Both the position numbers and the translations under genes were made by a program. This document shows positions 45,693-59,322 of a stretch of DNA of 64,000 nt, in pieces (the stretch's first letter is position 1; every line of letters begins with the position of its first letter). Below the pieces are notes generated by a model that was not told where the DNA came from, did not search any database, and was given only the letters and a program-made list of their open reading frames with translations. The stretch is from Eledone cirrhosa (taxonomy: Eukaryota): NCBI GenBank assembly GCA_964016885.1, contig OZ024743.1, forward strand, positions 201,686,001 through 201,750,000, written 5' to 3'.

Positions 45693-45750
45693 GTCTCTCT
45701 CTCTCTATCTATCTATCTATCTATCTATCTATCTATCTATCTATCTATCT

Positions 45751-48700
45751 TGATAGAGTGAGACACGCTTCACATCGGCTCTGCTATTCTATCGGAATTT
45801 ACCCTTACTATAGTAAGTTCCAGTGAATTTTTTCAGTGCAACACATTTGGAACATTTACCCCTGTTATTTGCGGAAACATTTTTACATTTACCCCCTTTT
45901 TAGGGGGTAAAATAAATAACTATTTTTCTGTAAAACTTCTTTCTTGGCCGCATGGCGGGAAAGATTGCAGACATGTCTGCCATTAGCTCTGCCACGCCCC
46001 CCAAGTCTGAAGAACAAAAAATGGATAAACAAAACTAGACAACGAAACAAACAAGGAAAATGAAAAAACAAATGTTACGGAAAATGAGCAAACGGAAAAC
46101 AAACAAACAGAAAACAATAATACAAAAAATAACAAGGCAACTTTCGCCCAGACAACAAAAAAAATCAATCACATATACACCTATTGACTTAACTGCCGCC
46201 AGAGAGAAACTGGCAGAAGCAAAAAAGCACATAGTCTTGGGGGAGAACGGAATATTTTCCATTAATTCCCCCCCAAGAATTCAAGAAAACGTGACAAGAA
46301 AACACTGTTCTGTTTAGAACAGTCCTAAACAACACAAGGAAGCCAGCACAACCCACCCAAACGGAGATAGAGTTGGTCCTAAAAGACCATATGAAGAATA
46401 TTCTCTTCATACGAAAGGACCGACTCTATGGCAGCATTTCTGCTTTAACAAAAGACAAAGAAACAACACAGAGGCTTTCCCTAAGCCCACTCACATCAAC
46501 AGCATACAGTTTCTATCCCTCCTACATGGGTAGAAGAACTCAGAGAATCAAAATACAGACAATGCTGCCCACAATGGACTTCTGGTGGGCTATTGATGGC
46601 CTATTAGACATGGGCGAGGACACAGTGCTGTCAATGGGGAAGGCATCTGGAGATGCGTTCCTGGGAATGGGCCTCGACCTACTAGTACAAATGAGGCCCG
46701 AAAGAATAGCGCAAATCCCGGATCGCATCTGGCTGGATGACCTCACCCCAATATATATAATTGTAGAGGGGAGAAGACCAGCATGCTATTCATGCATGGA
46801 AAGGGGACACGTTAAGGCTAACTGCCCGAATCGTATTCCCCAAAAAGGACTATTGCCCACACCCACCACAAACAGTACACCAACACCACCCACCTCCAAA
46901 AATACACTAACACCACCAACACACACAGCAAACAAAATACAGACACCACCAACCACAAGCACAACACAAACATCACCACCACCAGCACCAAACACAAGCA
47001 CGACACAAAAATCACCACCACCATCACCAACCACAAGCACGACACAAACATCACCACCACGACCACAAAACACATTCCAAACAAATAATATAAAAAACAG
47101 CAACAATTCTACCCCTCCCGCAAAAAAAACAACCAGACACCACGTCCCTCCCACCTAGCGCTGAAGAGTTTCCCCCAACTTCTGAAGAAGAAGGAGGAGA
47201 AGCCTTCAGACAAGTTAAAAGGAAAAAACGAAAGCACACACCCAGCACACCACAACAACAAATAACCTACACACAAACACCAACTCCAATCAAAAACACC
47301 CCACCCTCGACAAACAAAAATAAATCTGCGCCTCCCCTCTTCGAAACATTGACAGCATCACAAAAAAAGACTTTACAATACACATATATAAATAAAGAAA
47401 ACAAAAAACTGTTTAAATTAATAAACAATAGCCCTTTGGTGCAGACCGAAGGGCCAAACTTTATCTCAACAGAGAACTTTACTCATTTAAAAATGATAAA
47501 GGTCCAGAGGGATATTTATCGTTCCTTAAAAGAACAATTTAAACAGGACGTGAGCCCCCCCCCTGTTTAAAACCGTTAAATCGCGTCCTCTTGAAAGATT
47601 TCCCCATAACCTCCCCTCTCCCTGACACAACTCCAAATACCCCAACCCCACCACACTCGGATACCTCCACACCACCACAAAACATCCCTCCACCCAACAC
47701 ACCCGACCCCATGGAAATTACACAACCCGGACTCCGGGACGCGGAGAGGTAGGTGCTCTTCTTTCTTCACTTTCAACACCAACACAGATCAATTGAGAGT
47801 TGGTTGTTTGAATGCGCGTGGCCTGGGCTCAGCTTGGAAGCAAGCAAAGCTTCTAAGTGACCTCAGGTTACGAAGTATAGATGTGATGGTTGTTTGCGAG
47901 AGTCGGATCAGCAGCGTGCGACAGCTGACTCCCGCCTTCGATGACTTTGAGATGCACGCATCTCTCTGTCAACCCGGAGGTGGGGGTGGGGTTGCCGTAC
48001 TGCTGGATAAATGTCTGGCTCTCGACGTACAGATTGTTCACTTGGACCCGGGGGGTCGATTACTGGTGCTGGACGTCGGAGGCGGTGAAGGCGGGGCTTT
48101 CAGACTGGTCGGTCTTTATGCCCCCTTCGGGGCTGAAAGAGCCGACTTCTTCCAGCGTCTGGAGACTTTTCTAGGAACGTCGCGTTCCCTACTTTTAGTG
48201 GGGGACTGGAATGAAATCCTAGATGCACGTTGGGACTATGCAGGGGCATGTCCCGATAGAGGGGGTTGTAGCAGCCTCAAGAGGTTACTCGATCGATTCG
48301 ACCTGGTCGATAGATTTCGACTAGATTTTCCAACTGTGCCAACCTGGACTTGGGCAAACCGCAGTGGTCAATCTAGATCGTACCTAGATAGGTTTTTGGT
48401 TAGGAGTAAGTATTTAGTTGTCCAGAATTGCTCATGGTTGGCTATTAAGATCACAAATTAGTTACCTGCGTGGTCAACCTTGATAGAACGCATAGACAGG
48501 GTCCCGGTTACTGGAAGATGAACTTGTCCTTGCCGGCAAAGGAAGCTTACAGAAACCAGATTAGTAGCTTAGTTAAGATGCGGTTGACGGAAGCGATCGT
48601 CAACAGCAGGTGGTGGGTATCTCTAAAGAGAGAGATTAGAGTAAGTTCGATAGGTTACAGTAAGGAACTAGCAGCGAATAGAAATAGGAGGGAAAGGGAG

Positions 48701-58803: not shown

Positions 58804-59322
58804 AGATAGATAGATAGATAGATAGATAGACACACAAACATTTTGGTATAAGACTTTTTGGGATAAAGAAATAATATATTTAATAGCTAAATTTATTGGG
58901 TATTGACAAAAAAATGCTAGAAGGATCTTATATTAGAAATCTATTATATAAATATAATGTAAAACTAAGTTAAGTGATAATATAATTATAAAATCGTAAT
59001 TCACCGGTACGCTATTTAAATATTGAGTTGTTTGTATGCCTACAAGAAATATTCCGTGTAATCTACGGCATGCTACACATATGTGCGACTATGAATTAAA
59101 AATGAATTATATATATATATATATACGCTCTTTCCCCTATCTCTCTTTCTCTTTCTCACTCTCTCTCTCTCTCTCTCTCTCTCTCTCTCTCTCTCTCTCT
59201 CTCTCTCTCTCTCTCTCTCTCTTATATATATGTATATATATATATATAGTTTGAGGAAAAGATAAACAGATTTACAAAAAGCCATATTATTTACACGCTT
59301 CATATGGAAAAGCGAAAAGAAA

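Follow-up and report, generated by a model that had tools for sequence, protein, structure and literature searches.

Tx1-like LINEs of Eledone cirrhosa that very probably target pre-existing (GATA)n microsatellites

Two LINEs bordered by (TATC)n repeats

The window, that is, the whole 64,000-nucleotide stretch of Eledone cirrhosa DNA that was analyzed, contains two LINEs lying against (TATC)n/(GATA)n repeats. Only 4 tracts of at least 3 TATC/GATA units were found in these 64 kb, and 3 of them adjoin the ends of elements 1 and 2.

Element 1 lies on the plus strand (45751-49400). It is preceded by the terminal part of a dispersed repeat unrelated to it, which finishes in a (TATG)n tail (45304..45692, plus strand), by a short (TC)n, and by the target tract (TATC)11 (45706..45749), and it is followed by the downstream target remnant ATCTATCT (49401..49408), which bears out the first-pass annotation in placing the element within the repeat. 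Another copy of the dispersed repeat at 61627-61926, 96% identical, has a TATG-like tail without the TATC tract or the insertion. The body of element 1 (45751..49330, family B) contains the 5′ UTR, ORF1, the APE endonuclease, and the start of the RT. It is decayed and breaks off at 49330, lacking ~2.1 kb of ORF2 and 3′ UTR. ORF1 is frameshifted (45952..47752, ends approximate) with a CCHC knuckle near 46781-46831, and the ORF2 fragment (47790..49330), which has one frameshift near 48410-48450, covers the APE endonuclease and the linker to the first RT motifs. Pfam recovered zf-CCHC weakly and Exo_endo_phos with E=7e-11.

Positions 1-3580 of the element were 91.5-93.9% identical to family-B copies. 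The last 65 bp (49336..49400, with AATAAA 7 nt before the end) were 91-94% identical to family A, compared with 80% to its own family B, and this tip is attached at the deletion breakpoint with a short local duplication. By these identities, element 1 is a chimera of a family-B body and a 65-bp family-A-type tail. Among its 20 closest relatives, located on 11 contigs, 16 had B-type 3′ ends and 4 had other types. The family-A-type tip was found in none of the 20, indicating that the 3′ end common to elements 1 and 2 is not a family-B feature. All 20 relatives continue 3′ into ATCT repeats, and the 17 of them whose full 5′ end was resolved all have (TATC)n upstream. The four with other types (L393, L399, L403, and L405) join family-B bodies to 3′ ends of other families, i.e., they are 3′ UTR mosaics among sister families.

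Element 2, on the minus strand (53081..58804), is a full-length 5.7-kb family-E copy decayed by several stops and frameshifts, and is 91% identical over its entire length to the family-E copy L035. Its 5′ boundary is 58803 or 58804, depending on a 1-nt overlap with the repeat. On the sense strand, (TATC)6 lies upstream (58805..58828) and an (ATCT)n tract downstream (about 53066-53081), both reading (GATA)n on the forward strand, so that the repeat is present on both sides as first described. The broken ORF1 (56820..58599, ends approximate) was 53-55% identical to the intact ORF1 of the young family Y. ORF2 (53330..56775), also broken, encodes the APE, the RT, and a C-terminal Cys/His domain, gave Pfam pieces of Exo_endo_phos, RVT_1, and zf-RVT, and was 74-91% identical to intact family-Y ORF2.

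The ORF1s of the two elements had been called quite diverged, and their segments were indeed 37-47% identical by tblastx. The common 3′ end proposed for the two elements stands as a sequence, since both finish with GGTGGCAAATAAA(A/T)AGAAAGTT without poly(A), but the tip that carries it in element 1 is of family-A type.

The window also contains near-perfect long palindromes at 51868-52276, 13640-13920, and 6896-7272, with arms of 204, 139, and 179 nt, respectively, that are 94-99% complementary and are separated by spacers of 1-19 nt. The copies of a direct duplication of ~2 kb (~19180-21540 and 25350-27730, 99-100% identical, 6.17 kb apart) enclose an open 830-aa frame (21641-24133) that reads by eye as a Penelope-like RT with a GIY-YIG end. 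At 32441-34402, a 665-bp unit occurs three times in tandem with 96-99% identity. Other decayed LINE- or Penelope-like elements lie at 42137-44851, 13909-16743, 60337-61532, and 10134-11942, the start of the first adjoining a (TATG)n run.

Families and relatives of the two elements

The window families have an ORF2 with an N-terminal APE endonuclease, an RT, and a C-terminal Cys/His domain. In a sister copy whose ORF2 is open over 1166 aa, Pfam matched Exo_endo_phos, RVT_1, and zf-RVT, and the best PDB match of ORF2 was human L1 ORF2p (E=2e-49), with R2 at E=1e-22. An intact family-Y copy encodes an ORF1 of 638 aa and an ORF2 of 1145 aa. This ORF1 is separate and carries one CX2CX4HX4C motif (CCHC knuckle), and Pfam zf-CCHC matched ORF1 only below the cut-off (E=0.004-0.012). 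Copies of the lineage have no LTRs, are frequently 5′ truncated, and show target-site duplication; three 5′ inversions were present among the older-family copies sampled.

At least five families differing in 5′ end and ORF1 were distinguished: A, B (the body of element 1), C, E (element 2), and Y (young). The endonuclease was 72-84% identical across families with its catalytic residues kept, whereas the ORF1 core was 46% identical. A conserved endonuclease beside a diverged ORF1 core is consistent with a shared target that would be set by protein.

The nearest named protein came from Argonauta hians, with 68% identity over 40% of the query. An RT tree was built with FastTree (116 rows, 325 columns; 9 near-duplicates dropped and family Y left out). 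Families A, B, C, and E grouped with the Argonauta protein with a support of 1.0, and their sister was a group at 40-45% identity (P0002-P0060), also with a support of 1.0. The window families nested among U2 snRNA- and 5S rRNA-flanked elements, the deep nodes being weakly supported. The architecture and these U2/5S-flanked neighbors, in a tree without named Tx1 references, suggest Tx1-like membership. Judged from sequence, elements 1 and 2 are decayed Tx1-like LINEs from one radiation, which is probably octopod.

Metagenome relatives with a U2 snRNA flank were found at L141, L132, L143, L131, and L138, and others had a 5S rRNA flank (L148), a tRNA-Pro flank (L189), or an (ATTG)n end (L170). 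ARAGORN revealed no intact tRNA beside the metagenome loci suspected of tRNA targeting, so these loci were not used as landmarks. When 80 more distant metagenome loci (~24-33% identity, long alignments) were scanned, no TATC/ATCT run of at least 12 nt was found at element ends. The ESM Atlas search returned generic APE-RT clusters only, and AlphaFold with a single endonuclease sequence gave a pLDDT of 41, which was too poor for use.

Contigs from two other organisms (X4 and X6), aligned on L344:430-680, contain the element 3′ end. In one X4 contig, ATCT repeats follow this end; in X6, tandem ends are separated by AGAT at one joint. The lineage and its junction are probably present in related species as well, a weak indication that comes from single contigs.

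Flanking repeats of copies across the genome

In the 3.0-Gb genome, the common 3′ motif had 956 matches, and its reversed control had none. A wider 3′ motif with TATC included had 12,132 matches, which served as a count and not as a flank test because TATC is part of the pattern. All 30 loci checked from the wider motif matched family references, 2 of them only outside the 3′ end or via mates. The family-Y motif had 1,814 matches, the copies being mostly 98-100% identical to an intact copy, and both ORFs were open in 4 of the 80 family-Y loci examined.

For the older families, the first 100 of the 956 matches listed were sampled, all on C1; most sampled copies in this study were first-listed matches on one chromosome. 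The 3′ end read TTATCT in 81 of the 100, and the period-4 composition persisted for 30 nt. The sense 8-mer of the repeat was present at the 5′ junction of 21/23 full-length and 33/77 truncated copies, and the antisense 8-mer at none. The control positions of the truncated copies gave 7/77 at 100 bp upstream and 0-1/77 at 200-800 bp. L081, counted among the 77, is really full-length with an internal deletion. The 44 truncated copies without the 8-mer comprised 11 with unresolved or rearranged boundaries, ~10 in which the repeats were degenerate or of another shared kind or a duplication was present, and ~22 with unrelated flanks according to a by-eye reading. We assumed that these ~22 reflect later deletions or nested insertions.

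The first-pass annotation had named 5′-truncated copies lacking (TATC)n as the sign of an element-encoded repeat. Of the first 100 family-Y matches, 97 were taken, and 88 copies remained after removal of 9 that were tandem partners or shared a breakpoint with another copy. Sense (TATC)2 was present within 30 nt upstream in 62 of the 78 truncated copies and in all 10 full-length copies; 16/78 truncated copies lacked it, and the antisense repeat was found in none. Controls at 200, 400, and 800 bp upstream gave 3/77, 1/77, and 0/71, respectively. The truncation points ran from positions 2145 to 5743, with about 60 different breakpoints. That truncated young copies keep the upstream repeat supports a pre-existing target. 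On the 3′ side, where a genome-wide check of junctions had been advised, the first four flank bases were ATCT in 84/88, and none of the 88 ends had poly(A). Of 47 clean family-Y cases, 25 had microhomology of at least 2 nt at the 5′ junction, compared with 2.5 expected.

We also approached the flanks from the tracts, picking the first 30 of 3,541 long tracts by repeat pattern alone. A copy in sense orientation adjoined 21 of the 30, none adjoined in antisense, and 9 tracts were free; the phase of the long-tract pattern favors family-Y 5′ ends, which account for ~8 of the 21 occupied tracts.

Target-site duplications were read in 16 hand-picked anchored cases (11 older and 5 young) where the tract is imperfect. 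They measured 12-20 bp, with T at -1 and AT at +1/+2 in all 16. The period-4 repeat mostly continues to the left of the duplication, i.e., outside it, and the bias reaches ~16 nt left of the nick. As the duplication starts with repeat usually to its left, the tract is older than the insertion. Two further apparent duplications in young copies, outside the 16-case set, were over-long at 27 and 64 nt, lengths consistent with units added from the RNA or with slippage at a later time. The apparent duplications at L327 and L337 were rejected as tandem-array artifacts.

Some copies had other repeats matching on both flanks, namely (ACCT)n at L037, (AT)n at L102, and (ATTT)n at L095, and the join at L259 was T^ATAA, directly past the tract with no ATCT added. 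These non-ATCT flanks and the L259 join indicate that the 3′ repeat is mostly target and not an obligatory tail. Common downstream sequence at L046, L119, L308, and L311 was considered as 3′ transduction, and this was rejected because the tract is part of another dispersed repeat and a normal duplication is present at L308. The dispersed repeat with internal (TATC)n is a recurrent landing site, seen at these four loci and at L323.

Copies also lie close together. The 100 listed 3′ ends had 26 neighbors within 10 kb, compared with 2.4 expected, and all 26 were on the same strand. On C1, L279/L280, L337-L341, L327/L328, L347/L348, and L303/L304 are head-to-tail stacks of near-identical family-Y copies with short ATCT joins. 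In some family-Y stacks the same truncation point recurs, which suggests that they arose by tandem duplication and not by independent insertion.

These results bear on two readings in which the repeat would not be a target. According to one, the repeats are element-encoded ends, and the lineage seeds (TATC)n wherever it lands. Tandem-repeat tails encoded by the element are found in CR1/L2/RTE elements, most long tracts adjoin a copy (21/30), and full-length 5′ ends carry some repeat-like leader. However, the tract stands upstream of truncated copies at ~60 different breakpoints, tracts extend left of the target-site duplication, 9/30 long tracts are free, and some copies have non-ATCT repeats on both sides, so we regard this reading as very unlikely. 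The other reading, that copies came to lie at microsatellites passively or by chance in a genome rich in them, or that the assembly is faulty at repeats, could appeal to a window full of microsatellites and to the passive accumulation that the consulted part of PMC3812793 suggests for Drosophila Waldo-A/B. We consider it extremely improbable in view of the base-exact phase, the zero antisense count, the near-identical young copies, the duplications in unique sequence, and the low local background, the sense 8-mer occurring in 8 of 1777 36-nt tiles of the window. Moreover, one 3′ junction was reproduced without differences in a separate contig set (X1), which is possibly from the same individual. 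At L344, no joint skipping the young insertion was present among those listed (43 more stand beyond them), which is uninformative on empty alleles.

Taken together, targeting of pre-existing (TATC)n/(GATA)n tracts is, with high probability, real. The (GATA)n/(TATC)n-specific APE lineage that was proposed from the window alone is supported by the repeat upstream of truncated copies, the duplications, and the fixed orientation.

Insertion mechanism and known systems

The elements probably insert into (TATC)n/(GATA)n tracts that are already present, in a single orientation and register, and the likely cause is an APE endonuclease that nicks the GATA strand. The nick would fall at 5′-AGAT/AGAT-3′ (+/-1 nt, because element and target both have T there), and reverse transcription would be primed from it (target-primed). 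The transcript end would lie inside the downstream repeat, where a few AUCU units could pair with the primer, poly(A) being skipped. A second nick would follow 12-20 nt from the first, and 5′ joining would proceed via microhomology, with a short repeat-like 5′ leader aiding it in full-length copies. Each insertion would duplicate 4-5 repeat units, so that a target for the next copy would remain on either side; this would explain the same-strand stacks.

The element ends carry some repeat-like bases themselves. AATAAA stands 7 nt before the 3′ junction in every family seen, and the element closes with four bases that form a degenerate repeat unit in register. Since the usual spacing from AATAAA to the cleavage site is 10-30 nt, transcripts would end inside the downstream repeat. 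Full-length family-Y 5′ ends had the repeat upstream in 30/30, in a single phase. In 16 of these 30 (counted by eye, two of them tandem partners), a (TC)n interrupts the repeat immediately ahead of its last unit, but this was so in only 2 of 62 truncated junctions, and a TACC variant of the 5′ repeat formed one clade from three distant loci with a support of 0.98. A few 5′ repeat-like bases before full-length ends seem partly to travel with the element; the (TC)n interruption could instead stem from slippage of the RT at the end of the RNA.

Such ends raise the question of what sets the site. If the endonuclease nicked T/A loosely, the site might be set mainly by pairing of the RNA 3′ AUCU with the nicked strand, and the AUCU units, read through from the donor flank, would make the target inherited from the flank and not from the protein. 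All families seen keep AATAAA 7 nt ahead of the junction, but poly(A) is absent from every copy; the final four bases form an in-register unit, full-length 5′ ends (the TACC clade included) have inherited repeat-like bases, and two apparent duplications are over-long, all of which favors this account. RNA-target annealing has, moreover, been proposed for SART1 and R1Bm in the consulted part of PMC7265360. On the other hand, 16 of 18 anchored duplications have no extra RNA-derived units. The inserts at L259 (T^ATAA) and L036/L037 (ACCT from the first unit) allow little pairing, yet they lie in register in or next to the tract, and the repeat bias reaches ~16 nt to the left of the nick, beyond any pairing between the RNA tail and the primer. 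We therefore judge site choice led mainly by RNA to be unlikely, and endonuclease nicking of the GATA strand stays our preferred reading. A broader picture is offered tentatively: an octopod LINE radiation, still active, would both insert into (GATA)n and spread it, with most long tracts of the 3-Gb genome occupied, the target remade per insertion, and short target copies at both RNA ends helping to set site and register. Target choice might then be partly flank-inherited and not due to the endonuclease alone.

With intact near-identical young copies and thousands of junctions, the lineage makes endonuclease recognition versus RNA pairing directly testable. Its sister families exchanged ORF1 and UTRs while retaining one target. 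A large share of the genome's long GATA tracts is tied to this one retrotransposon lineage, a link relevant to how microsatellites arise and to the GATA markers of octopods.

Microsatellite choice by APE-type LINEs is described as not well understood in the consulted part of PMC3812793, which gives ACAY, AC, TC, TTC, and TAA as repeat targets. For Tx1 elements, the text of PMC4494074 gives (TC)n, (TTC)n, (TTCC)n, and (TTTC)n; the word GATA is absent from that text. According to the available parts of these two papers, teleost Kibi targets (TC)n, teleost Koshi targets (TTC)n, and the crocodilian elements Tx1-1_Crp, Tx1-5_Crp, Tx1-6_Crp, Tx1-1_Gav, and Tx1-2/3/5/8_AMi target (TTCC)n or (TTTC)n. 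As far as these descriptions go, they are, like the window lineage, microsatellite-specific Tx1-type APE LINEs with a T/C-rich target strand as written. The published descriptions set the window lineage apart by its junction, T^ATCT in (TATC)n instead of (TC)n, (TTC)n, (TTCC)n, or (TTTC)n, by its invertebrate host, and by its more than 12,000 3′ ends and the occupation of most sampled long tracts.

The U2-flanked metagenome loci are elements that we take to be Keno-like, and the 5S-flanked one is presumably a Mutsu-like Tx1 element. These Keno-like (L131, L132, L141, and L143) and Mutsu-like (L148) elements are the closest recognizable relatives of the window families in the RT tree, but they share only ~28-33% ORF2 identity with them and have gene targets instead of microsatellites. 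In LINEs with an element-encoded tail, the repeat is found only at the 3′ end, whereas in the window lineage it lies upstream in 62/78 truncated copies.

Outside the Tx1 group, Waldo and Mino target ACAY and AC, and Dong targets TAA, as listed in the consulted part of PMC3812793, and endonuclease swaps set the target of TRAS1/SART1 in that of PMC1919474. From these partial sources, Waldo, Mino, Dong, SART1, TRAS1, and R1Bm resemble the window lineage as repeat-specific LINEs whose site is set by the endonuclease, but belong to other clades with other targets; SART1, as described there, keeps a poly(A) tail, which the window lineage lacks. In Octopus vulgaris, 13 recently active L1-Tx1 families with 421 insertions are given in the main text of PMC13282606. 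They are likely of the same broad group as the window lineage and likewise recently active; that main text reports no target preference and does not contain the word "target."

The first-pass annotation could recall no description of a (GATA)n target, and none was found in the open-access literature, although Repbase, Dfam, and subscription papers may list these families. Microsatellite-specific Tx1 elements were already known, so this is no new kind of system; what appears to be new is the GATA target.
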